From assembly GCA_024404145.1 (NCBI GenBank), contig JAKSQK010000002.1:168646-232645 (forward strand): DNA of 64,000 nucleotides. The letters run 5' to 3'. This document shows, in pieces, positions 37,709-64,000 of this stretch (position 1 is the stretch's first letter; every line of letters starts with the position of its first letter). The DNA comes from Clostridia bacterium. Lineage in GTDB: Bacteria; Bacillota; Clostridia; Oscillospirales; Acutalibacteraceae. Both the position numbers and the translations under genes were made by a program. The notes below the pieces were generated by a model. The model was given only the letters and a program-made list of their open reading frames with translations. It ran no database searches and had not been told where the DNA came from.

Positions 37709-37784
37709 GCTGCTATGGCTCAGATGGTAGAGCACATCCTTGGTAAGGATGAGGTCACCGGTTCAATTCCGGTTAGCAGCTCCA
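37709..37784 (+). tRNA. tRNA-Thr (anticodon GGT), CCA encoded
   Basis: Manual cloverleaf: acceptor GCTGCTA/TAGCAGC, D arm GCTC-AGATGGTA-GAGC, anticodon arm CATCC-TTGGTAA-GGATG, T arm ACCGG-TTCAATT-CCGGT, then TCCA. Confidence 0.9.
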
Positions 37785-52409: not shown

Positions 52410-53315
52410 TTATATTCCCTGCCTTTCTTTTACGGTTATTTTATCCGTCTTAAAGCCTATTTCTTGCTTTTTTGAAACAAGCAGTTTCTCTGTTTTTTGC
52501 TTAAAAATTTCCGAAAAACGACGGCTTTTATCCTTTATGCAAAGAGAAATTTCATACTTTTTTGTTTTGGGATTAAACTTCGCTTCGCCGCTGCTTATAT
52601 TGGCATATTGGTCGTCTAAATAAATCTTTCCGCCGCCGTTATTGTCGGTTACAAAGGAATACAAAAGCGCTTCCTCATTTGTAAGAAACGACCTTTCCTC
52701 TTTTTTCTTATAAACCGAAAGACCGTCTATAATAATTTTTTTATCGCTGTTTTTTATAAAAGGGAAAGAGTAGTTTTCGCCGTGTTCGTATGCCTTATAA
52801 ATCTCATAAAAGTTGTTTTTGTAATCTATTCCGATTTCCCGCTCGGTTTCCTTAACATTAGCGGCTATATCAAATCCCCTCGAAACCGAAACCGAATCGG
52901 ATTTCTCCAAAAGTTGCGAGGCATTTTCGCAAACAAACATATCGACTGCAAAGTTTAGTTCTTTCAGTTCGTTGCCGTATTTCAAAACCTCGCCTAAGTT
53001 CGTTTTGCTTAGATTTCTGCCGATTATTATAGCGGTACAATGGTCAAAAAGCAGGTTTTTTGTTATTTGGCTGTTCAGAGAAAATACGGCGTCCATAGGC
53101 GTATCGCCCTTTCCGCTTATTATTTCCGATGTCGGCGTTTCACTCCTTTCGCTTCCACCGGCAGTTACGACCTCAACCGAAACATTTATTTTTTCCTCGC
53201 CGTCAAAACCTATCGCCGTTACGATATAACTGCTGTCGGCCTCGGTATAGTCCCCGTTGCCCGTTAGCGAAACGACTATTAAAATCAAAAAAATACAAAT
53301 TGCTTTTTTCTTCAT
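52410..53315 (-). CDS. Ger(x)C-family germination protein
   Basis: N-terminal signal-like segment then YIVTAIGFDGEE, a typical Ger(x)C start. 4-nt overlap with the A subunit gene. Confidence 0.7.
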   Translation of the reverse strand: MKKKAICIFLILIVVSLTGNGDYTEADSSYIVTAIGFDGEEKINVSVEVVTAGGSERSETPTSEIISGKGDTPMDAVFSLNSQITKNLLFDHCTAIIIGRNLSKTNLGEVLKYGNELKELNFAVDMFVCENASQLLEKSDSVSVSRGFDIAANVKETEREIGIDYKNNFYEIYKAYEHGENYSFPFIKNSDKKIIIDGLSVYKKKEERSFLTNEEALLYSFVTDNNGGGKIYLDDQYANISSGEAKFNPKTKKYEISLCIKDKSRRFSEIFKQKTEKLLVSKKQEIGFKTDKITVKERQGI

Positions 53316-54790
53316 TTTTTGCTCCTGTTTCTGACAAGATTTCGGTTAAAAGGCGGCCTTAATCTCATTTTTGTCCACGGCGCTCTTATTACGGTATCTT
53401 TAAGCGCTTGGAAATTGGGGCTTTTAAGCGAAAGCATATATTCTACGCCGACCGATTTCATTGATAATACCGATATAACAAAAACGGCAAAAACTATCAT
53501 AAATCCGTAAAGCCCTAATATTGCACTGGCAATTGCCAGAATAATCCTGAGATAAAAAACGGCGCCTTTAAGACGGGGAATCATAAGTCCCGCAACTGCG
53601 GCAAGGGACACGACTATCAGCATCGGCGCACTCATTATCCTCGCCTCTACCGCCGTTTGCCCTACTACAAGTCCGCCGACTATACTGAGCGCAGAGCCCA
53701 AACTTTGCGGTGTTCTGAGGCCGGTTTCTTTTAGTATTTCAAAAACAAGAATAAGCGCCAAACATTCGGTAATTGACGAAAACGGCACTCCGCTTCTAAG
53801 CTCCGAAACGGTCAGCATAAAAGGTGTCGGCAGAAGCTGAATATGAAAGGTTGAAAGCGCAATAAATATAGCCGGAATGCTTATGCTTAAAAAGAAGCAA
53901 ATATATCTAAGCGCTCTGCCGATACTTGCAATATAAAAATTAAGATAGTAGTCCTCGTCGCTTTGAAAATTCTCGCTGAAAAGATACGGCACGGTCAATA
54001 CTACCGGTGTTCCGTCAACAACAACCGCTATTCTTCCCTCCAAAAGTCTTGCGGCTACAATATCGGGGCGCTCGGTGCTTCCGGTTGTTTTGAAGAGAGA
54101 GGTTTTATTGTCCCTTACAAGTTCGGCAATATAATTCGAGTCCAGAATGCCGTCTATGTCGATTTTTTCCATTCGCTTCTTTATTTCTTCCAAACATTTT
54201 TTGTTGGCAACCGAATCAAGATAAACAAAATAAACGGCAGTTTTTGTTCTTCTGCCGAGGGTTGTTGAGTTTATGCATAGGTCGGGGGTTTGAAGTTTTC
54301 TTCTTATCATGGCAAGATTTAGTATGGCGGCTTCGTCAAAACCCTCTCTCGGGCCCTGTAAAACTCTTTCGTCGCTCGGCTCGTCTATACCTCTTGTCCG
54401 CCAACCTTTGGTATCAACCGTCAGCGCATCGAAAGAGCCGTCTAAAAAGACGGCGGTATCGCCGTTTAGCATCGCCCTTAAAATATCAGAAACTTTTTTT
54501 GTTTTTGATAGTTCACCGGCGTATAAAACTCTTGCCAAAATATAGTCGATGTCAACCTGTCGGGGAGTGTCCTTTGAGGTAACGCAGGGCCTTACAAGCG
54601 AATCGTCAATGCTTGAACCCTCGACCATTCCGTCAAAGAAAAGAAACGCAATTTTTGTTTTGCTTTCGCCGACATTTACAACCCTGATTCTGAGCAGTTC
54701 GTCTTTTTTGAAAATTTCCTTAAAAAGTTCGATGTTTTTTTCTAAACTTTCGTCAACCAAAAGTCCGTCATAATCATTCATATTTTTCAC
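53312..54790 (-). CDS. spore germination receptor A subunit (GerAA/GerKA-like)
   Basis: 492 aa. Soluble N-domain followed by a TM domain. The pattern LQGPREGF.E....N..MIRRKL is typical of the GerA family. Confidence 0.85.
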   Translation of the reverse strand: MKNMNDYDGLLVDESLEKNIELFKEIFKKDELLRIRVVNVGESKTKIAFLFFDGMVEGSSIDDSLVRPCVTSKDTPRQVDIDYILARVLYAGELSKTKKVSDILRAMLNGDTAVFLDGSFDALTVDTKGWRTRGIDEPSDERVLQGPREGFDEAAILNLAMIRRKLQTPDLCINSTTLGRRTKTAVYFVYLDSVANKKCLEEIKKRMEKIDIDGILDSNYIAELVRDNKTSLFKTTGSTERPDIVAARLLEGRIAVVVDGTPVVLTVPYLFSENFQSDEDYYLNFYIASIGRALRYICFFLSISIPAIFIALSTFHIQLLPTPFMLTVSELRSGVPFSSITECLALILVFEILKETGLRTPQSLGSALSIVGGLVVGQTAVEARIMSAPMLIVVSLAAVAGLMIPRLKGAVFYLRIILAIASAILGLYGFMIVFAVFVISVLSMKSVGVEYMLSLKSPNFQALKDTVIRAPWTKMRLRPPFNRNLVRNRSKK

Positions 54791-55456: not shown

Positions 55457-55969
55457 TTGGAAACGGGTAATAAGTGTTGTTTTACGGGCTACCGTCCCCA
55501 TAAATTTCCCTTTGTGCTCGAAAGCGGAGAAAAGGCGGCAACGGAGTTTGACAACCGTCTGATAAAAGCGATATGCGACCTTGCCGAAAGCGGGGTCAAC
55601 ATATTTTTCAGCGGTATGGCGATGGGATTTGATATAATTTCTGCCGAAGCGGTGCTGTATGTCAGAGCGTTGCGGCCGGATTTCAATATAAAACTGATAG
55701 CCGCCATTCCTTTTGAAAATCAGTCGGCGGGGTTTGGCGAGAAATGGAAATCCCGTTACGATAAAGTTCTATCGGAGTGCGACAGTGTTGTTCTTGTTTC
55801 GGATAGATATTACAGTGGTTGCTATTTTGCGAGAAACAAGTATATGGTTGATAATTCCGATGTTGTTGTCGCCTATTTTGACGGAAAAACCGGCGGTACG
55901 AAAAACACTCTTGCCTATGCCGAGAAACTCGGCAGAGCGATAATAAATCTTTATGACGAGGAGACATAA
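55457..55969 (+). CDS. DUF1273 / YpsA-like SLOG-family protein
   Basis: CCFTGYRPHKF start, SGMAMGFDIISAE, VAYFDGKTGGTKNTLAYA. TTG start sits 10 nt after AAGGAG. The start is uncertain. Confidence 0.7.
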   Translation: METGNKCCFTGYRPHKFPFVLESGEKAATEFDNRLIKAICDLAESGVNIFFSGMAMGFDIISAEAVLYVRALRPDFNIKLIAAIPFENQSAGFGEKWKSRYDKVLSECDSVVLVSDRYYSGCYFARNKYMVDNSDVVVAYFDGKTGGTKNTLAYAEKLGRAIINLYDEET

Positions 55970-55970
55970 A

Positions 55971-57686
55971 ATGACCGATGTATTATTTGTAACTTCAAAC
56001 ATACCGAAGTTTTCCCTGCGTCTTAACAACGATTCTCTGCTTTTGGCAACGATACTCGAAAACGCCGGAACAACTGTTAAAACTATAAGTTTCGGCGATG
56101 TTTACGACGGCGATTATTCGGAATTTGTTAAAAAACTTACGAAAGCCATCATTGAAACGGGTTGCAAAATGGTAATCTTTCAGGCATATTTCTTATCTCT
56201 GCCGGAATCGTTAAGAATTGCCGAAGAATTAAAGAAATCTGCCCCCGAAATTCCGAATTTGTTTTTCGGCGAAGAGGCAACGAATCAAGGAAAAGGGTTG
56301 CTCGAGCGAATGCCGATGATAGACTACCTTTATATAGGTGAGCCGGAATCGGTTATAGTAGATATTGTTAAAGGAATTATTAGAAAAGATACCTCTTTGC
56401 TCGGCAAAATCAACTATCTTTTTTACAAAGGCAAAGATTTATCGGCTTTTGACCCGCTTTCAAACGAAAATATTGCCGATGTCAATTCTCTGCCGACCGT
56501 ATCCGAGAAGTATTTTGTTTCGGAGGACGGCAAAACCATCAGCCCTTATATAAATATAGAAATCGGCAGAGGTTGTCCCTACCGTTGTACCTACTGTAAC
56601 ATCTGCACTTCGAGGGGCAGGAAATACCGCTTGGTTTCTCCCGAAAAATTTGTTGAAATAATAAAGCATTATACCGACCTCGGTTGCAAAAACTTCAATA
56701 TTCCGCACGATTCTCTTTTTGTTAATAAGCAAAAGGTTTTTGAGCTTTTCGATGCGATAGAAAAGAGCGGAATAAAGGCGAACTTTATTGCCGGCGGAAG
56801 AGTTGATAATGTTGACGAAGCTTTGATAGACAAGCTTGTAGACTGCGGTGTAAATTATATGTTTTTCGGGGTAGAAACGGGCTCTTTGAGAATGCAGCAG
56901 TTAATAAACAAAAAACTCGATTTAGATATGGCGCTCAAAAAATTCGATTATGTTTTGAAAAAGAACATAAAGCTCGAATGTTTCTTTATGTACGGGTTTC
57001 CCGAAGAAACCGAAGAAGATCTGAAAATGACGGTAAATATGATGATAGACCTGTTATATAAAGGTGCCATGGTTCGGTTTACGATGTGTCATTTTTCAAC
57101 AAATTCAATTCTATATAAGGAATATTTCGACCGTCTTGTTTTTCCGGGCGACTTCTATGAAGTTGAAAAAATGCAACTTGCCGACAGCAGCGAAGCCAAG
57201 TTTATTTCGGAAAATAAAGAAACCTTTGCAAACCTCTATAATCTTAAAACTCCTCTCAGAATGCGGTTTAATTATTTGAGTTTCTTTTTCCATCTGTTTT
57301 CCGATTATCCAAATACTTTTTTTGCAATGCGCGGTAAATACGGCAAAGAAAATATTCTCAATATTTATCATGATTTTATAGCGCAAAACAACAATTTCAG
57401 CGCCTTTTCTCCACAGCAACTTTACTATATGAGCATAAAAGGCGGTCCCTTTGTTGCCGAGTTTATAAATTCTTTCGGCGATACGAAAGAAGATACGGCG
57501 ATAAAGAGTATCTTTGAGTTTGAAAACGATATAAAAAAGATAAAAAAAGGCGAAACAATAATGAAAACCTATTCTTTCGATTACGAAGCGCTTAAAGCAA
57601 AATCGGATTTTGATACCGTTAAAGCCAAGAGTTCAAACCTGCTTATATATAGGCAGAAAGGCAAAATTTCGATAAGCGTTATATAA
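55971..57686 (+). CDS. B12-binding-domain radical SAM protein
   Basis: N-terminal Rossmann-like B12-type domain, radical SAM CPYRCTYC. ATG lies 1 nt after the upstream stop and is preceded by GAGGAGACATAAA. Confidence 0.75.
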   Translation: MTDVLFVTSNIPKFSLRLNNDSLLLATILENAGTTVKTISFGDVYDGDYSEFVKKLTKAIIETGCKMVIFQAYFLSLPESLRIAEELKKSAPEIPNLFFGEEATNQGKGLLERMPMIDYLYIGEPESVIVDIVKGIIRKDTSLLGKINYLFYKGKDLSAFDPLSNENIADVNSLPTVSEKYFVSEDGKTISPYINIEIGRGCPYRCTYCNICTSRGRKYRLVSPEKFVEIIKHYTDLGCKNFNIPHDSLFVNKQKVFELFDAIEKSGIKANFIAGGRVDNVDEALIDKLVDCGVNYMFFGVETGSLRMQQLINKKLDLDMALKKFDYVLKKNIKLECFFMYGFPEETEEDLKMTVNMMIDLLYKGAMVRFTMCHFSTNSILYKEYFDRLVFPGDFYEVEKMQLADSSEAKFISENKETFANLYNLKTPLRMRFNYLSFFFHLFSDYPNTFFAMRGKYGKENILNIYHDFIAQNNNFSAFSPQQLYYMSIKGGPFVAEFINSFGDTKEDTAIKSIFEFENDIKKIKKGETIMKTYSFDYEALKAKSDFDTVKAKSSNLLIYRQKGKISISVI

Positions 57687-57690
57687 AAAC

Positions 57691-57720
57691 AAAAAATCTC
57701 GTCATTGACGAGATTTTTTT
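57691..57720. terminator. bidirectional terminator shared by the convergent operons
   Basis: AAAAAATCTCGTC-att-GACGAGATTTTTTT. It overlaps the last codons of the peptidase gene. Confidence 0.8.
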
Positions 57721-58175
57721 ATTTTTGCTTTTAATTTTCTTAAATTTTTCGTTACCGCTTTTCTCCAAACCTTTCTTATGGGGAAAGAACAATAGTTGAT
57801 AAAGGTATAGAATTTATAAAGCGCCGAAGGGTTTTCGCAGTTTATTAAATGCTTTTTGTTTCGGTAAATTTCTTTGAGAACACCTATTACCCGCTCTTTG
57901 GCTATTGTTTCGGTGCTTATCAGGTTGTCGCCTCTGAAAATATAGTCAGTATCTGTTTCTTTGATTATTCGGTGCAAAACCAAATTTCCTTTTTTGGCTC
58001 TGTAAAGCGCAACATCGAATTTTTTAAGCGGTCTTTCCGCCTTTACAACACGGGCAATATCCTTGCCTTCACGCAAAAGCGGACGCATACTTATTCCAAC
58101 GGTAAGCGATAAATACTCGCCGTTTTTTTCAATTTGTTCCTCGGCAGATAGTTTTTTATTGTCCATATTCTTCAA
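57702..58175 (-). CDS. S24/S26-family (SipW-type) serine peptidase without N-terminal membrane anchor
   Basis: GISMRPLL (Ser nucleophile box), LHRII (His/Lys box), FRGDNL box. Hydrophilic N-terminus and a basic amphipathic C-tail. Start is TTG 58175 or ATG 58166. Confidence 0.65.
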   Translation of the reverse strand: MKNMDNKKLSAEEQIEKNGEYLSLTVGISMRPLLREGKDIARVVKAERPLKKFDVALYRAKKGNLVLHRIIKETDTDYIFRGDNLISTETIAKERVIGVLKEIYRNKKHLINCENPSALYKFYTFINYCSFPIRKVWRKAVTKNLRKLKAKIKKSRQ

Positions 58176-58183
58176 CCGTAAAA

Positions 58184-59248
58184 TTATGCCTTAAATTTTT
58201 TCTTATATAGCGCCCTTTTTCTTTTTCGGGGCAAATCGGGGATTTTATTTTCCCTTATGTAATCGAAAACGGGTTTTCCTTTCGGCGCCATATCATACAT
58301 TTGGGTTATCATAGTTCCGGGGGTGTTGTTAAGTTCGATAATACAAGCGCCTTCCTCCGTAACGGCTATATCCCAGCCGATAAGCGTTGCCTGGTATGCT
58401 TTTTTTGCGCCCTCCGTTGCAACCCTCTTAACCTCATCGAAATTAGGGACCTCGAAACCGATTATTTTCTTGTTTGATTCGGGGTGAAAGTAATATTTGT
58501 TTCGGTAAAAATCGTATGCCGGAGTGCAAACGATACCGCTTTCGATATCTATTGTGGCTCCGAGACCTTCATGGCGGATATTATCTACAACGCAGTCGCC
58601 GATACCGATTTTAAGCGTTGCGGAAATTATTTTTATGTTGCCGCCCTCGTTAAGCGTAACAATTCTCGCCGTATTAACCGAATCGGAATGCATTTCTGCT
58701 AATTCGTGATGCTGAACTATATAATCCTCGCATAGATATTTTCTGCCTAAGGTTTTTATGTATGCCTCGTAGAGTTCTTTTTCGTCGCCGTTGTTTTCGT
58801 AAACAAAAACCCCCGCCCCGAGAGAGCCCTGACAGGGTTTGAAAACAACCTTTTTCCGTCCCTTAATAAACTCTTTAATTTGTTCCAGTTTTTTGCTGTC
58901 GTCTTCAAGGCAGATAAAATCCCTTTTTATAAGGTCTTTGCCGAAAAGTTTATACTGCTTGTCCTTGCCGTGCTCCTCGCCTTTTTTGGCGATAGTTTTG
59001 TTAAATCGCAAATAGGTAATATACTGGTCGTATTTAACAAGATAATTTTTTCGGTAACAGTCCCTTAAATTATAGAACTTGTAAAAATCGTATTCGGTTG
59101 GCAAAACCTTATAATGCAAATAGCAATGAAGCATATCGACAGTTCTTGCAAAAAGCTTAAAACCTTTGTATGCCTCGTCGGTTTTACCCGTTTTGCAAAA
59201 GGTTGCGTAGTTTTGCAAAAAAACGGGAAAGTATTTATATATTTTCAT
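58184..59248 (-). CDS. ATP-grasp ligase (resembles the 'sugar-transfer associated' ATPgrasp_ST group)
   Basis: FKPCQGSLGAGVFV nucleotide-binding loop and the IIELNNTPG Mg-ATP motif. ATG at 59248 preceded by GAAGG. Confidence 0.65.
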   Translation of the reverse strand: MKIYKYFPVFLQNYATFCKTGKTDEAYKGFKLFARTVDMLHCYLHYKVLPTEYDFYKFYNLRDCYRKNYLVKYDQYITYLRFNKTIAKKGEEHGKDKQYKLFGKDLIKRDFICLEDDSKKLEQIKEFIKGRKKVVFKPCQGSLGAGVFVYENNGDEKELYEAYIKTLGRKYLCEDYIVQHHELAEMHSDSVNTARIVTLNEGGNIKIISATLKIGIGDCVVDNIRHEGLGATIDIESGIVCTPAYDFYRNKYYFHPESNKKIIGFEVPNFDEVKRVATEGAKKAYQATLIGWDIAVTEEGACIIELNNTPGTMITQMYDMAPKGKPVFDYIRENKIPDLPRKRKRALYKKKFKA

Positions 59249-59259
59249 TGTTAAACCTT

Positions 59260-60378
59260 CTATTCGATAGCAATGAAAGAGTATTTTTTCTTCGGATGGA
59301 AGAATATCTCTTCCCCAAAACATTCATAAGGATTTACCTTAAAAACATTATCGTTTAGCGAAATCAGCCCGTCTGCTTTTGAAAGGCCGAGCGGAATTAC
59401 CTTCTGATATTTTGAGATTAAACCGTTAATCTTGTGCCTTCTCGAAGAAAAATCGACAGTCAGGTTGCAATAATACGGCTTTCCGCTGTCCTCCTTTACG
59501 GCAAAAGCATCATTGCAGTAAAAGAAAATCTTTTGCGGAGTAAACGGCAGGGAGATTTCGAAATTGTTTGTCGGCTCGGTGGGAGTCCAGTTAGCAAGAA
59601 AGGTGCGTTTGCTCTTTTTTATCTCCAAAAAACCGTTTGTTTTCGATATTATATTTTCTTCGGTTTCGCTTTTATCGAAAATTGTATTATAAGCCGTCAA
59701 TGCCGAACCGACATCTTTGTTGCATTTGATTTTCCAAATTTTAACATTTTCCAAAAGACGGTCGATAAGGGAGAGCGTATCGTTTAGCGCCTTCGGATTT
59801 CTCGGCATATAAACCTGACTTGCTATAAGTTCCGTTGCCGATTTTTTATCCAAAAGTTCGGTTTCGTTTTTGTCGGCGCGTTCGATAAAGCAAAGGTGTT
59901 TCAGTTCGGTTTTCGTATTTGTACCGAACTTTTCTTTGCCGGTCCAAGGGGTGCCGTAAGCAAAAATCTTATCGTCAAAAAACCTTATTATCGGCTTGTC
60001 GCCGTTAACTATCGTCATTTTTTCGCCCAAAAGTTTTTGCCAATTAAGCATATGGGTTGTTTTTCCCGTTCCGCTTCTTGCGGCAAAGGCAATACCGTTG
60101 CCCTCTATATCGAGAACAACCGAATGAAAAACGAAAGCGCCGAAAAGGGGCAAAACATCGCCGAGTTTTCTGAATCCGGCAATTTCCGCCACATAACCTT
60201 TTGCCATTTTTAGTTGCTCTTTATCAAAAAGGATTTCCTGATTTATATCCTCTTTTGTAACCTCTATCGAAATATCGGCTTTCGTATCGTCTGTTCGGTA
60301 GTCGGTCATACGGTGCTCAAACAGGTTGTCGATAGCATTAAAGTCTACGGTAAAGTCGGCAATTTTGAAACAAGGCAT
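59260..60378 (-). CDS. HPr-kinase-like P-loop protein fused to about 140-aa C-terminal domain of unknown function
   Basis: FHSVVLDIEGNGIAFAARSGTGKTT matches the lHa.av...g.a.l..G.SG.GKST pattern of HprK-related kinases. No match recognised for residues from about 235 to 372. Confidence 0.6.
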   Translation of the reverse strand: MPCFKIADFTVDFNAIDNLFEHRMTDYRTDDTKADISIEVTKEDINQEILFDKEQLKMAKGYVAEIAGFRKLGDVLPLFGAFVFHSVVLDIEGNGIAFAARSGTGKTTHMLNWQKLLGEKMTIVNGDKPIIRFFDDKIFAYGTPWTGKEKFGTNTKTELKHLCFIERADKNETELLDKKSATELIASQVYMPRNPKALNDTLSLIDRLLENVKIWKIKCNKDVGSALTAYNTIFDKSETEENIISKTNGFLEIKKSKRTFLANWTPTEPTNNFEISLPFTPQKIFFYCNDAFAVKEDSGKPYYCNLTVDFSSRRHKINGLISKYQKVIPLGLSKADGLISLNDNVFKVNPYECFGEEIFFHPKKKYSFIAIE

Positions 60379-60380
60379 AA

Positions 60381-60647
60381 TTATTCTTCCAAAAGGTCGG
60401 CTGTTTTTAATTTTTCAATAATAGCTTCTGCGCTTTCCTTTGCTTCTTGCGTTGTGCAGTCAAATTTTGCAACACAGCTGTTTATAAGCTCATCGGAAGT
60501 ACAGCCGTTACCGAGTTGTTCGATAATGAAAGCCGCCGTTTCGTTTAGTTTAAGGAATCCGCTAAACGAATTTTTGTTGTCGTCAACGGGAACTGCGATA
60601 TAATTTCCCGACATTTCATTAATTACAAATTTAATTTTAAGTTTCAT
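60381..60647 (-). CDS. PqqD-family peptide chaperone (RiPP recognition element)
   Basis: 88 aa. The pattern ...YIAVPV ... LNETAAFIIEQLGNGCTSDELINSCVAKFDCTTQEAKESAEAIIEKL is PqqD-like. ATG preceded by AGGAGC. 11-nt overlap with the rSAM stop. Confidence 0.75.
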   Translation of the reverse strand: MKLKIKFVINEMSGNYIAVPVDDNKNSFSGFLKLNETAAFIIEQLGNGCTSDELINSCVAKFDCTTQEAKESAEAIIEKLKTADLLEE

Positions 60648-61998
60648 TTGTGTTGCTCCTTTTATCATACATATTTTTCATTTGGTTTTCTAACATATTT
60701 CGGTAGTTTTCTTCGTCGGTTTCGTCGCACCTTCTCGGCATACTTTCGCAAGACTGCGGATAAAGGCACATAGGCATAAACTTGCAACCGTCGCATTTAT
60801 CGCAAACTTTTTGAGTATGTTTATACCAGTTTAGCTCATCAATATTTATTTCTTCGGAATAAACACTGCCCCAAAAATGGTCGTCGGTATGGCGTTGGCA
60901 TTTTCCGAGGTTGCCGTCGGGTAAAATCATAACGGTAGAGTTAGAATCCGCCATACAGTGGACATGCCTTCTCGAATAATAAGGGTTGTAAAATTTTTTG
61001 TTCAAATTGTTATAGATATAGCGCTGTAACTCGATTTGCTTTTTGATAATTTCATGGCGGTTATCGGAATCTCGGTTTTCTATTCTCGCACAAGAATCCT
61101 CAAACAGCAAATGAACATATAAAACAAAACCGTCGTACTTTGAAAAACGGGCGATTAAATAATCGGTCAGCGCTTTAAGGTCGTCGGCGTTGTGGTCGTC
61201 CATATTCATTCTTATTTGAACATCAATTCCGCTTTTTAGCAGGTTTTCAACATTGCCTACAACCCTCTTAAAAGCGCTTTTTTCGCTCTTGTCTACATAA
61301 GCTTTTGTTGTGTTGTAAACTTCCTCGGTGCCGTCGAGAGTTATCTGCACCCAGTTCAGATGCCATTCGTTTTTGGCGCGTTTAATTAAATCTTCATCAA
61401 AGAGATAGCCGTTGGTAGTCATTTTTGAATTAAATTTAATGTTTTCGCTGTTCAGTTTGTTACAGATAGTATCAATGGCTTTAATATTGCATAGCGGTTC
61501 TCCGCCGAACCAACGAAGAACGGTATTGTTTTTCGTTCGGTGGTTTATAATATACTCTGCCGATTTAAGCGCCGTTTCCTCGCTCATATTTATATGCTTT
61601 GCATCTTTTTCAAAGCAGTAAAAACATCTTGCGTTGCAATTAGTTGTCGGCAAAATTGTAAAAGTTTTGATGTTTGAAACTTTTCGCAGTTTGTTCGTTA
61701 AAAAATAAAGAGAGTTCATCTGTTCGCAAAAAGCAAAGTCATCAAAATCGCGCGGAACTAAAAACCGGTTATTTATTAAATATTCGGTCAGTTCGTTTCT
61801 TTCGGAAGAATCAAGAAAACAGCCGTATTCGCTCTGCTCAAGGAAAATAAGTTCCGCCGATAAAAGATTATATACCAAATATCCGCCGTTGTGCTTTATT
61901 GTATGTAGATAAAAAAACGGGCGGTATTCTTTATTTTCAGTTTGCTGTTTTGGGGCCATTGCCGAAAAAAACTTATCGGTACTGTTTATTTTTATCAT
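60637..61998 (-). CDS. radical SAM/SPASM-domain peptide maturase with N-terminal RRE-like region
   Basis: CNARCFYC (CxxxCxxC) after about 115 aa. C-terminal auxiliary-cluster cysteines: CMADS ... GKCQRH ... CDKCDGCKFMPMCLYPQSCESMPRRC. RBS GGAGAAAAAGA. Confidence 0.85.
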   Translation of the reverse strand: MIKINSTDKFFSAMAPKQQTENKEYRPFFYLHTIKHNGGYLVYNLLSAELIFLEQSEYGCFLDSSERNELTEYLINNRFLVPRDFDDFAFCEQMNSLYFLTNKLRKVSNIKTFTILPTTNCNARCFYCFEKDAKHINMSEETALKSAEYIINHRTKNNTVLRWFGGEPLCNIKAIDTICNKLNSENIKFNSKMTTNGYLFDEDLIKRAKNEWHLNWVQITLDGTEEVYNTTKAYVDKSEKSAFKRVVGNVENLLKSGIDVQIRMNMDDHNADDLKALTDYLIARFSKYDGFVLYVHLLFEDSCARIENRDSDNRHEIIKKQIELQRYIYNNLNKKFYNPYYSRRHVHCMADSNSTVMILPDGNLGKCQRHTDDHFWGSVYSEEINIDELNWYKHTQKVCDKCDGCKFMPMCLYPQSCESMPRRCDETDEENYRNMLENQMKNMYDKRSNTNET

Positions 61999-62085
61999 TC
62001 TTTTTCTCCGTTTGCTGTAGGTTTATATTATTATGAATTATTAAATTACAGCAGGGCTGTAACCTAATAATACATAATAATTATG

Positions 62086-62117
62086 AAAAAAACCATCCCT
62101 AATAAGGGATGGTTTTT
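62086..62117 (-). terminator. intra-operon hairpin/terminator between precursor ORF and maturase
   Basis: Minus strand: AAAAACCATCCCT-tatt-AGGGATGGTTTTTTT. Confidence 0.7.
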
Positions 62118-62120
62118 CCC

Positions 62121-62136
62121 TTGTGATGCATCACAA
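62121..62136. promoter_or_regulatory. perfect 16-nt palindrome TTGTGATGCATCACAA
   Basis: Located 8 nt downstream of the precursor stop codon. Could be an RNA hairpin or a dimeric-protein binding site. Confidence 0.4.
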
Positions 62137-62143
62137 AGTTAAA

Positions 62144-62248
62144 TTACTGCATTGAAGGCGGAACTACACAGAACCACTCTTCTTCTTCCTCTTCAGAAGT
62201 TGTGATAACATCGTTAATCATAACGATATCCATTTCAGCGAATTTCAC
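62144..62248 (-). CDS. candidate RiPP precursor peptide, 34 aa: MKFAEMDIVMINDVITTSEEEEEEWFCVVPPSMQ
   Basis: Own translation. GTG start sits 6 nt after GGAGGTG (62261-62255), with a TAA stop at 62146-62144. It lies directly upstream of, and co-directional with, the rSAM/PqqD genes. It is below the ORF-track size cut-off. Confidence 0.6.
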   Translation of the reverse strand: MKFAEMDIVMINDVITTSEEEEEEWFCVVPPSMQ

Positions 62249-62274
62249 TTGACACACCTCCTATAAAGATTTTT

Positions 62275-62309
62275 ATGTAAGTCCTAAAAAGGATTACATT
62301 AAATAGGAC
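62275..62309 (-). promoter_or_regulatory. overlapping inverted repeats in the precursor upstream region
   Basis: Two repeats share the GTCCT/AGGAC segment: GTCCTA-17 nt-TAGGAC (62281-62309), and ATGTAAGTCCT/AGGATTACAT (62275-62299, one bulge). Confidence 0.35.
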
Positions 62310-62314
62310 AATAA

Positions 62315-62338
62315 AGGGGGCACAATTTGTACCCCCCT
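62315..62338 (-). terminator. terminator after the Cys-rich repeat protein gene
   Basis: Minus strand: GGGGGGTAC-aaatt-GTGCCCCC followed by TTTATT. Lies 25 nt after the stop. Confidence 0.7.
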
Positions 62339-62362
62339 TATTTTCAAAAACGCTTTATGATA

Positions 62363-64000
62363 TTAGTTGTAACCAAACATAGCTCTAATTGAGATGCCGA
62401 ATTTAGCAAGTGCTGTGCACATTGCACCGTTCTTAGCATCATCAAGCATAGAACCGCAGTAGGTTTCGAGCGAATATGTATCGGTCATGATAACATCGCC
62501 GTTATAAGTTACAACAGCGGTTATTGTCTTGTAAGAATCATAAAGTGCCATAGAGTTAAAGTAACAATAAGCGTAAGTGTTCTTACCTCCAACCGTTGTG
62601 GTAAGTTCGCTACCTGTATAGGTTTCTCTTATTGTTTCCTCTCCGCCGCTTGCAGTATTGTTACTGGTAACATAACTGATATCGATAGAGAGTTTGTCTA
62701 AGTCATAAATAGTACCGTTCTTGTTCGAAATAGTAAGCTGATATGCGAACGAAGGAGCAGCAACGAGTGTTACAGAGCTTGTATAGTTGCAAGCTGAATT
62801 GTAATTAGCGCCCTGCTGTTTATCGTTAACATCATTAAGTCCGGTAATTACTGTTTCGGCATCGGTTGCTACAGGATATGAATATGTAGGATCAGCTGCA
62901 TCAACATAAACTGTAATCTTGCCTAAATCAGATTCTGCCGGAGCGCCGTTTGCCTGGAAGTATCTCTGGGCTTCGCCGCCGAGAATTAACAAATCGCGAG
63001 CTGCAGCTCTTGTATTTGCTTTTCTGGTTTTAGCAGCTGTCTTATCGCTTGTCTTAGGAAGATTTGACTGATACAATTCCTTCAAAAGAACATCAGGACG
63101 GCTGGTAATATCAGCAGTATAAGCTATCTTGTTGCCCTTAGCATCGAAGAACTCAAGGTGAGCGTCTATCGGTAAGTCAAGAGCATACATAGCAACACCG
63201 TAGTAGTTGGTGTATAAATATCCTGAGGCGCTACCGAATTCAGTAAATACGGACGGCTCTGCTATCATCTTATTAAATGCAAAACCGTTGATATCATAAA
63301 CGGTAGGAGTTACAACAAGTTTTACCGAAGCGGTATTTTCGGGCATATCTGCCTCTAACCACTGATATGCAATGCCAAGCTGAGCGCCGATAGCAACGGA
63401 AGCAGCGAACGAATCAACTGTTACGAGCTGGGGCTCAATAGCAACTTCGCGAACATAGCCGCAAGTATTACATGTATCGTCAGCATCGTTGTCATAAATA
63501 TGAGCAGCGGTGTCAACTTCTGCACTACAGCAGCTCCATACTTTCCAGTGGTTGTCAGCGTCTTTCTGCCAGTCGCCTAATGTACCGGTATGGTTAGTAG
63601 CATTAACTTCGCCGAATTCATAAGTTCCGGCAACTGATTTATCACAAGCTCCGCATACGCAGGTCTTGTAGTAAACAGCTTTTGCAGTACATGTAGCAGC
63701 TGACTTTAATGTATCGCCATTTTGTACTGTTGTCTGATCATAAACATGAGCTTCGAGTGCGCCGTATTTAGCACCGCAAGTAGCACATTCTGCTTTTTCT
63801 GTGCATGTAGCTGTTCCGCCTGCATGAGCAGCCTTATCAGCTTCTGCACTACAGCAGCTCCATACTTTCCAGTGGTTGTCAGCGTCTGTCTGCCAGTCGC
63901 CCTTTGTACCGGTATGGTTAGTAGCGTCTACTGTGCCGTATTTAGCACCGCAAGTAGCACATTCTGCCTGTGCTGTACATGTAGCTGTTCCGCCTGCATG
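62363..64000 (-). CDS. large Cys-rich repeat protein, C-terminal part (5' end beyond window)
   Basis: I translated 64000..63347 by hand. The frame is open and continuous with the 327-aa track ORF. Repeated modules are HAGGTATCTxxAECATCGAKYG and NHTGTxGDWQxDADNHWKVWSCCSAExDxAAH. Confidence 0.7.
   Translation of the reverse strand, partial: HAGGTATCTAQAECATCGAKYGTVDATNHTGTKGDWQTDADNHWKVWSCCSAEADKAAHAGGTATCTEKAECATCGAKYGALEAHVYDQTTVQNGDTLKSAATCTAKAVYYKTCVCGACDKSVAGTYEFGEVNATNHTGTLGDWQKDADNHWKVWSCCSAEVDTAAHIYDNDADDTCNTCGYVREVAIEPQLVTVDSFAASVAIGAQLGIAYQWLEADMPENTASVKLVVTPTVYDINGFAFNKMIAEPSVFTEFGSASGYLYTNYYGVAMYALDLPIDAHLEFFDAKGNKIAYTADITSRPDVLLKELYQSNLPKTSDKTAAKTRKANTRAAARDLLILGGEAQRYFQANGAPAESDLGKITVYVDAADPTYSYPVATDAETVITGLNDVNDKQQGANYNSACNYTSSVTLVAAPSFAYQLTISNKNGTIYDLDKLSIDISYVTSNNTASGGEETIRETYTGSELTTTVGGKNTYAYCYFNSMALYDSYKTITAVVTYNGDVIMTDTYSLETYCGSMLDDAKNGAMCTALAKFGISIRAMFGYN
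63517..63925. repeat. near-identical 85-nt direct repeats (63517-63601 and 63841-63925) inside the repeat-protein gene
   Basis: cttctgcactacagcagctccatactttccagtggttgtcagcgtct... occurs twice with about 4 mismatches, 324 nt apart. A second 66-nt pair lies at 63761-63826 and 63935-64000. Confidence 0.9.

Follow-up and report, generated by a model that had tools for sequence, protein, structure and literature searches.

The SynChlorMet (Scm) cassette, which is defined bioinformatically in TIGRFAMs/NCBIfam, contains ScmC, the PqqD-like protein ScmD, and the radical S-adenosylmethionine (SAM)/SPASM enzymes ScmE and ScmF. Ranthipeptides and sactipeptides, such as those of the CteB/SCIFF and PapB/freyrasin systems, are likewise made by radical SAM/SPASM enzymes, which act on a short, acidic, Cys-containing core behind a leader; PapB is reported to join Cys with Asp or Glu (PMC9413430). 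Those lasso peptides of Firmicutes that are phosphorylated (paeninodin, PadeK; ThcoK; pseudomycoidin, PsmK/PsmN) involve an HprK-fold kinase and a PqqD-type leader binder, and in Firmicute lasso clusters the kinase is found beside a split B1 (PqqD-type) protein (PMC5067487). In graspetide systems and those of RimK-type alpha-L-glutamate ligases, an ATP-grasp enzyme is found beside a Glu-rich peptide. Here we describe an operon that resembles each of these systems and differs from each in at least one feature that we tested. It consists of six co-directional genes on the minus strand of a 64,000-nt stretch of DNA, hereafter called the window, from a Clostridia bacterium of the Acutalibacteraceae (GCA_024404145.1, contig JAKSQK010000002.1, positions 168,646-232,645 of the forward strand).

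We consider it likely, with good confidence, that this operon makes a ribosomally produced peptide with post-translational modifications (RiPP) by the pathway proposed below, and that it belongs to a large uncharacterised family of cassettes from the gut and rumen. An initial annotation had proposed a new RiPP operon at this site. Our analysis supports that proposal: no protein of the operon reached a curated NCBIfam cut-off that would assign it to a characterised system, and the small open reading frame (ORF) at the start of the operon is conserved.

Operon structure and the precursor family

ORF calls placed the genes in the order precursor peptide, radical SAM/SPASM maturase, PqqD-type protein, P-loop protein, ATP-grasp ligase and peptidase. 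The maturase and PqqD genes overlap by 11 nt when MKLKIKF is taken as the PqqD start, as in its homologues, and the PqqD, P-loop, ATP-grasp and peptidase genes are separated from one another by 2, 11 and 8 nt, respectively. A terminator-like hairpin with a 15-bp stem followed by a T-rich tail (62310-62342, minus strand) lies between the upstream gene and the precursor gene. A second hairpin, with a 16-bp stem and a T-run (62085-62120, minus strand), is located 3′ of the precursor stop codon and is presumed to be an attenuator. The third (57691-57719) is a bidirectional, terminator-like hairpin with a 13-bp stem and T-runs on both strands that ends the operon as well as a convergent gene. The positions that the initial annotation had given for the six genes, with the short distances between them, and for the three hairpins were all confirmed. 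Its statement that terminators bound the operon on both sides held only in part, as the hairpins are present but the upstream edge is not clean: the neighbouring gene, which encodes a secreted protein, is conserved beside the precursor gene. A hydropathy scan revealed no membrane or hydrophobic segment in any of the five enzymes.

The precursor gene (62144-62248, minus strand) encodes a peptide of 34 aa, MKFAEMDIVMINDVITTSEEEEEEWFCVVPPSMQ, and its best start is the GTG at 62248, which is 8 nt after an AGGAGG sequence. The peptide consists of a conserved 18-aa leader, MKFAEMDIVMINDVITTS, followed by an acidic 16-aa core, EEEEEEWFCVVPPSMQ. This core has a single Cys that is adjacent to W-F and preceded by six Glu residues, contains no Lys and ends in ...PPSMQ. 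Pfam and NCBIfam contained no match to the window precursor (NCBIfam even at E <= 10), and no NCBIfam model matched any of nine family precursors that were searched.

Related loci came from a scan of one genome per species, in which the best 80 of more than 500 relatives were chosen by maturase similarity. A motif search of these loci, which demanded a Cys in the tail of the peptide, identified 57 candidate peptides in 49 loci, about 51 of which were convincing. Whether a small ORF is conserved beside homologous maturases had been set beforehand as a check on the proposal, and such an ORF was present in about 45 loci. The leaders share the consensus (K)..E-[IV]-V-x-F-x3-4-D-V-[IV]-T-T-S, and the T-T-S at the junction provides the only hydroxyl groups that are invariant across the family. 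At the leader/core junction, position -1 is nearly always Ser and position -3 is small or aliphatic. The cores are 10-35 aa long and hypervariable among loci, and a single locus (L063) encodes four different precursors. Asp and Glu together account for 22% of the 957 core residues, Lys and Arg for 1.4%, Cys for 12% and Gly for 14%; the near-universal presence of Cys is partly by construction because of the way in which the motif search was set up.

A strong hairpin followed the precursor stop codon in all 26 loci examined. The mean minimum free energy of these hairpins was -25.5 kcal/mol, compared with -15.1 ± 6.0 kcal/mol for random 80-nt windows from the same loci. The hairpin probably keeps precursor transcripts in excess over those for the enzymes. 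Since the genes are found together again at dozens of loci in other genomes, with conservation of the small ORF and of this hairpin, we conclude that the arrangement is not due to chance. The versions from Prevotellaceae/Bacteroidales (L031, L032, L037, L041 and L064) have a different, very short type of precursor, for example MKPAGMVCGTSCPTKSSCVCDGDCPWHGDW, and two HprK-like paralogues are frequent in these loci.

Putative maturation enzymes and their predicted chemistry

The maturase gene (60637-61998, minus strand) encodes a 453-aa radical SAM/SPASM protein with matches to PF04055 (59.4 bits, cut-off 29.5) and PF13353 (Fer4_12). This identity had been proposed from a CNARCFYC sequence and C-terminal Cys clusters, and both Pfam and the motifs bore it out. 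CNARCFYC spans residues 121-128 and forms a CX3CX2C motif (C121-x3-C125-x2-C128). In the SPASM region we found C348-x13-G-x4-C367, C402-x2-C405-x5-C411-x5-C417 and C424, with all seven Cys residues invariant in 27 homologues; the SPASM motif CX9-15GX4C...CX2CX5CX3C...C is thus matched except that the last spacing is x5 instead of x3. A profile of the maturase family had as its top PDB match the SCIFF thioether maturase CteB (5wgg, E = 1.4e-19), and the matches that came after it, SkfB among them, were far weaker. In NCBIfam, all of the closest families mature Cys-rich peptides. TIGR04463 scored best (150 bits, cut-off 525); the scores for Clo7bot (122 bits, cut-off 600), CefB (110 bits, cut-off 600) and PapB (89.5 bits, cut-off 340) were lower. 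Direct searches of PDB sequences with the radical SAM, ATP-grasp and P-loop proteins gave nothing useful. A PqqD-like RiPP recognition element (RRE) in the N-terminal region of the maturase was also considered; an hhalign comparison with a PqqD alignment gave a probability of 0.25% and was uninformative.

From its kinship with CteB and from the Cys- and acid-rich cores, and thus by homology only, we propose that the enzyme would install an intramolecular cross-link, most likely a thioether of the sacti/ranthi type between the single core Cys and a carbon of a nearby residue. The operon might instead be a RiPP operon whose radical SAM enzyme forms a C-C or C-O cross-link on Trp-Phe, epimerises a residue or modifies Glu, leaving the Cys without a thioether. 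The position of the lone Cys in the window core, beside W-F and after six Glu, would suit such a reaction, and some related cores have no Cys. In addition, the NCBIfam models of thioether maturases score far under their cut-offs, and the cross-linking families DynA and AmcB are weak matches to the maturase as well. However, Cys makes up 12% of core residues and nearly all cores contain at least one, albeit in a search that demanded it, the best solved relative is a thioether synthase, and the best NCBIfam neighbours mature Cys-rich targets. On balance we regard a chemistry other than thioether formation as rather doubtful.

The comparison with ranthipeptides and sactipeptides breaks down at several points even if the cross-link is a thioether. 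The maturase scores lie far under the cut-offs of those families, as seen with PapB, and the described systems do not have the accessory set of HprK-like protein, stand-alone PqqD, S26 peptidase and ATP-grasp ligase. Moreover, SCIFF precursors have six Cys in 45 residues, whereas the window precursor has one and matches no NCBIfam model. The ranthipeptide rule of antiSMASH keys on the SCIFF precursor model TIGR03973 (PMC13289728) and would probably miss this cluster.

The gene following that of the maturase (60381-60647, minus strand) encodes a stand-alone PqqD-type RRE of 88 aa, counted from MKLKIKF. Pfam confirmed the identity given previously (PF05402, 41.8 bits), and the protein also weakly matches the lasso B1-type and HPr-rel-A PqqD models of NCBIfam. 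In Bacteroides uniformis (L072, 13053-14180), HprK/ScmC-like and PqqD domains are joined in one 375-aa fusion protein, whose gene is followed by one for an ABC transporter. Because the two are naturally fused in that organism, PqqD appears to serve the P-loop enzyme; it would bind the leader and present the precursor to the ScmC/HprK-like enzyme, if not to others as well. A different PqqD fusion was seen in Prevotella (L035:8838-9821, minus strand), where a gene transcribed divergently from that of the maturase encodes 327 aa, in which a PP-loop-like N-terminal part (TGGLDS) is joined to a C-terminal PqqD domain.

In the ScmC/HprK-like P-loop protein (59260-60378, minus strand; 372 aa), a P-loop domain (residues 1-236) is connected by a disordered linker (237-256) to a beta-sandwich (257-372). 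The protein had no match in NCBIfam, PDB sequences or a local Pfam copy that lacks PF27840, and PF07475 was not found at E <= 10; the homologue P0122 matched PF07475 at E = 0.043. An AlphaFold2 model based on 40 homologues had a predicted local distance difference test (pLDDT) score of 84. The top Foldseek matches of this model were the HprK/P structures 1kkl, 1kkm and 1jb1, followed by PEPCK, and the best of them (1kkl_B) had an E value of 3.1e-7, a probability of 1.0 and a target template modelling (TM) score of 0.48. Since Foldseek puts HprK/P structures first, the earlier designation "HprK-like" is correct at the level of the fold. Most homologues carry a precomputed assignment to PF27840 ("ScmC"), which is weak or faint where graded, and none is recorded for the window protein (P0121). 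These relationships suggest that the P-loop protein is a member of the uncharacterised ScmC family.

Residues that are invariant in the P-loop family include H85, SGTGKTTH (102-109), NGDKP (125-129) and GTPWxGKE. Four residues, His-Lys-Asp-Asp, are essential in lasso-peptide kinases (PMC9266682), and three of them seem to be paralleled here by the invariant H85, K106 and D127, as judged by position in the fold. The HprK-like enzyme would most likely move phosphate from ATP onto the peptide. Some lasso clusters pair the kinase with a nucleotidyltransferase-like gene. PF14907 is found in lasso clusters. Among sister loci of the window operon, L075, L026 and L079 contain an ABC exporter together with an NTP_transf_5 nucleotidyltransferase, a further likeness to the lasso systems. 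The operon differs from those systems in that it has no lasso cyclase (Asn-synthetase-like) and no B2 protease (transglutaminase-like), its precursor is not Ser-terminated, its scaffold-forming enzyme is a radical SAM protein and only three of the four kinase residues seem to be kept.

The SynChlorMet cassette, which is likewise uncharacterised, has in common with the operon a radical SAM/SPASM enzyme, a PqqD protein and, probably, a member of the ScmC family. The maturase scored only 42.3 bits with ScmE and 40.9 bits with ScmF, compared with cut-offs of 400, and NCBIfam provided no ScmC match for the window protein. Three further features set the window cassette apart from SynChlorMet: precursors that form a clear family, a protease of the signal peptidase type and, in this copy, an ATP-grasp ligase.

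In the AlphaFold2 model, the C-terminal 116 residues of the P-loop protein fold as a separate all-beta domain behind the disordered linker. Modelled alone, from four sequences, this domain had a pLDDT of 71, and a comparison with the PDB gave nothing significant. A PDZ identity, suggested by a phmmer match to the Par-6 PDZ domain (E = 0.18), was rejected, as the model shows a beta-sandwich that is closest in the PDB to a galectin-like structure (E = 0.012, TM-score 0.36). A search of 1.84 billion representative proteins turned up about 20 relatives. Four are HprK-like fusions, two are C-terminal parts of larger proteins and one is a repeat protein (partial matches); the remainder are stand-alone proteins of about 145-180 aa. 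Two contigs with stand-alone forms were inspected, one of which (P0280) places the gene within a phage tail module, and P0278 matches a PHROG tail-fibre family. Thus the "HprK-like kinase fusion" of the initial annotation is indeed a two-domain protein, and its partner is a beta-sandwich of unassigned function. As side observations, the domain (59263-59610, minus strand) is distantly related to L171:8001-8537, part of a phage tail module that also contains Peptidase_S74 and LRR_5 genes, and a stand-alone paralogue that is phage-tail-fibre-like (L169:1508-1699) directly follows a fused HprK-like gene.

The last gene of the operon (57702-58175, minus strand) encodes a 157-aa serine peptidase of the SEC11/SipW type (S26), the presumed leader peptidase. 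It matched TIGR02228, a model of archaeal/SipW-type signal peptidases, with an E value of 9e-7 and 28.9 bits, below the cut-off of 51.85, and a profile of 17 sequences matched human SEC11A (PDB 7p2p, E = 9.3e-6) as well as bacterial SPase I. S29 (in SMxP), H68-R69 and G82-D83 are invariant in the 17 homologues. No membrane anchor was found, the maximum Kyte-Doolittle value for a 19-residue window being 0.55; the cytoplasmic S24/S26 SipW-type peptidase that had been predicted is thus recognisable as a soluble S26 enzyme. SEC11/SipW signal peptidases have the same Ser, His and Asp residues in SMxP, HR and GDN, but they are membrane-anchored with an active site outside the cytoplasm, whereas the window enzyme is soluble and encoded within a RiPP operon. 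Signal peptidases prefer small residues at positions -3 and -1, a rule that the T-T-S junction fits, and the soluble peptidase would cut off the leader after T-T-S. A 2023 review of RiPP leader proteases leaves signal peptidases and the S24/S26 families unmentioned (PMC10885120), and no signal-peptidase-type RiPP leader protease was described in the literature that we searched.

Distribution of the cassette and its rare or neighbouring components

The maturase has 3443 homologues at E <= 1e-20, and for the ScmC/HprK-like protein 1482 were found at E <= 1e-5. Cassette genes in the related loci were scored by tblastn with the window proteins. HprK-like genes were present in 47 of the 80 loci, PqqD genes in 41 and peptidase genes in 23. 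In the 35 loci where the radical SAM gene is flanked on each side by 3 kb or more, the corresponding numbers were 24, 23 and 15, and all three genes occurred together in 15. These counts are lower bounds because many contigs are short, ORF calling was crude and the loci were selected by maturase similarity. Gene order is variable among the loci. The loci come from Acutalibacteraceae, Oscillospiraceae, other Clostridia and Bacteroidales, as well as from one metagenome-assembled genome of Lentisphaeria, and the samples are from human, ruminant and rabbit gut. Small ORFs are inserted between the HprK-like and PqqD genes at L004:12285-12638, L007:12094-12555 and L013:4993-5361. We rejected these as cassette genes; judged by eye from their sequences, they look like selfish insertions, with resemblances to an IS200-like transposase, a DUF559-like product and a protein with a four-helix bundle.

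From these data we conclude that the core cassette, comprising precursor, radical SAM, PqqD, ScmC/HprK-like and peptidase genes, is a widespread uncharacterised family in gut and rumen Clostridia and Bacteroidales, and that only the ATP-grasp ligase and the fused beta-sandwich are rare in the window copy. The cluster is less singular than it first seemed, since its core is common. The initial annotation had named no described class that combines all of these enzymes. No description of the gene combination, or of a function for ScmC or SynChlorMet, was found in the literature searched, which excluded the radical SAM RiPP atlas of Clark and Seyedsayamdost (2022); the core set nevertheless recurs widely and is not a one-off.

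The ATP-grasp ligase (58184-59248, minus strand; 354 aa) matches PF14397 (ATPgrasp_ST) with 142 bits and has a partial RimK-like match, so that Pfam and NCBIfam agree with the previous assignment. Residues of the catalytic type, E305-x-N307 included, are invariant. Homologues are few, with only 35 at E <= 1e-10 in 5.8 billion sequences. Among the 80 related loci the ligase was found in L001 only, in the same position and after the same fused form of the kinase. Both ligase-bearing loci thus have the fused kinase. The idea that the fused domain always accompanies an ATP-grasp gene was weakened by fused forms in L081, L082 and L169, where no ATP-grasp gene is visible in the following position. 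The closest other relatives of the ligase (about 39% identity) are four tandem paralogues that follow a SCIFF precursor, a maturase and a pyridoxal phosphate-dependent decarboxylase (L086/L087), and others adjoin ABC transporters (L088). In a metagenome scan for further relatives, best-segment identity did not exceed 38%, and the 85 loci checked, the earlier ones included, contained one radical SAM match and one PqqD match. Judged by the neighbours in L086/L087 and L088, the ATP-grasp clade seems weakly tied to radical SAM peptide systems. Independently of the window, the four tandem ATPgrasp_ST paralogues at L086:3990-11051 and in L087 suggest an undescribed, ligase-tailored variant of SCIFF.

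In the rare sub-variant to which the window copy belongs, the ligase would make an amide or ester at a core carboxylate, either adding an amino acid or amine or closing a ring. This step recalls graspetides and RimK-type ligases, with which the operon shares an ATP-grasp enzyme beside a Glu-rich peptide and the partial match to the RimK family. It differs from graspetide systems in that the ligase belongs to PF14397 and is not of the microviridin type, Lys is missing from the core, and the Ser/Thr residues of the core are not preserved in the related L081 and L082 precursors.

Convergent on the operon is a plus-strand gene (55953-57686) for a 577-aa B12-binding radical SAM protein (PF04055 and PF02310), which shares the terminal hairpin with the operon and whose start overlaps the end of a YpsA (SLOG) gene by 17 nt. 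Its best NCBIfam match is the RiPP enzyme ApyD (174 bits, cut-off 750). A homologue with 31% identity directly follows the radical SAM gene on the same strand in L054 (6961-8703). In L010 and L013 the peptidase gene abuts the YpsA gene with no B12-binding radical SAM gene between them. These arrangements suggest that the protein may have been recruited as an extra tailoring enzyme.

The ATP-grasp ligase, the B12-binding enzyme or both could instead be passengers, acting for example in cell-surface polysaccharide modification, such that only the four-enzyme core acts on the peptide. The ligase is missing from 79 of the 80 related loci, PF14397 is annotated as sugar-transfer associated, and most distant metagenome relatives do not lie beside a cassette, as the single radical SAM and PqqD matches among 85 loci attest. 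The gene of the B12-binding enzyme, for its part, runs opposite to the operon and has an overlap with that of YpsA. However, the ligase gene sits between two cassette genes with gaps of only 11 and 8 nt, L001 repeats this position after the same fused kinase, and the closest other relatives of the ligase are found beside a SCIFF precursor and maturase. Similarly, the homologue in L054 lies directly after the maturase. We therefore consider it unlikely that these enzymes are passengers.

Upstream of the precursor gene is the 3′ part of a large gene for a secreted Cys-repeat protein (62363-64000, minus strand), with at least 545 codons in a frame that is open to the end of the window. It encodes tandem Cys-rich repeats of the forms HAGGTATCT..AECATCGAKYG and ATNHTGT.GDWQ.DADNHWKVWSCCSAE. 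The homologues are 500-870 aa long and combine a signal peptide with a domain resembling cohesin (PF00963, 27 bits in L008), zinc-ribbon-like CxxC modules and a shared, conserved C-terminal region of about 300 aa. In 24 Clostridia loci, such a gene is the immediate upstream neighbour of the precursor gene and has the same orientation. Because the other flanks of these loci differ, the secreted protein appears to be functionally associated with the cluster and not merely syntenic. This gene is probably a conserved partner of the cluster, and the unit probably extends past the upstream hairpin at which the initial annotation had ended it.

The remainder of the window resembles ordinary chromosome in which the minus strand predominates. 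Its sole Rfam match is a single tRNA gene (37709-37781, plus strand), and an ORF of 492 aa (53312-54790) looks by eye, from its sequence, like a GerA-type spore germination protein.

Weighing the proposed pathway and its significance

According to the pathway that we propose, the modified peptide would be exported by an unlinked system, and the secreted upstream protein would probably be a functional partner. The initial annotation had left a choice between an intracellular, cofactor-like product and export by an unlinked system. A peptide-derived redox cofactor resembling PQQ or mycofactocin, instead of a secreted product, is highly improbable: the pairing of PqqD with a SPASM enzyme, the lack of an exporter, immunity gene or regulator in the operon and the lack of membrane segments in its five enzymes would be in keeping with it, but the cores are hypervariable, with four different ones in L063, whereas cofactor precursors (PqqA, MftA) retain invariant reacting residues, sister loci encode ABC exporters or, in L029, L036 and L040, C39-ABC exporters with an ECF (extracytoplasmic function) sigma factor, neither the PqqE nor the MftC model appears in the 25 best NCBIfam matches listed, and the conserved neighbour encodes a secreted protein.

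Several observations weigh against the RiPP pathway as we have drawn it. Pfam and NCBIfam searches with the operon proteins revealed no exporter, immunity gene or regulator inside the six-gene operon. Core Cys is absent from the L079 precursor and from one L058 copy in a list compiled without the Cys filter, so thioether formation may not be the only reaction in the family. Ser and Thr are both absent from 7 of 51 cores, which means that a core hydroxyl is not a universal target of the kinase, and the residue before D127 is Gly where the Asp-Asp pair of lasso kinases has Asp. As for the ligase, Pfam links PF14397 to sugar transfer rather than to peptides, and in L001 the ATP-grasp gene is present with no peptidase gene downstream. 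Each modification step is, moreover, deduced from homology or gene context.

The overall logic of the operon is nonetheless that of a standard RiPP system, with a leader, an RRE and a radical SAM/SPASM enzyme, and each of the nearest described systems fails at least one tested feature. The ATP-grasp step is rare, and the product of the window copy should therefore differ from the norm of the family; its chemistry is probably not yet described, because this copy carries a rare additional ATP-dependent ligase. Tentatively, and as a possibility that we would not yet favour, the family could represent a new class of RiPPs that is widespread in gut and rumen anaerobes. Such a class would combine a radical SAM-cross-linked acidic peptide with PqqD-guided phosphorylation of the ScmC/HprK type, the first known soluble leader protease of the signal peptidase type, amidation or cyclisation by ATP-grasp in this sub-variant, and a secreted cohesin-like protein as extracellular carrier, receptor or target.

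Gut anaerobes have proved fruitful for radical SAM RiPPs with new enzyme chemistry and for peptides that act as signals or antimicrobials, and the cassette family is of interest to RiPP enzymologists and microbiome chemists alike. A single solved member would give the ScmC Pfam family a function, would show whether PqqD proteins guide kinases beyond the lasso pathways, and would add a signal-peptidase-type enzyme to the leader proteases of RiPPs.

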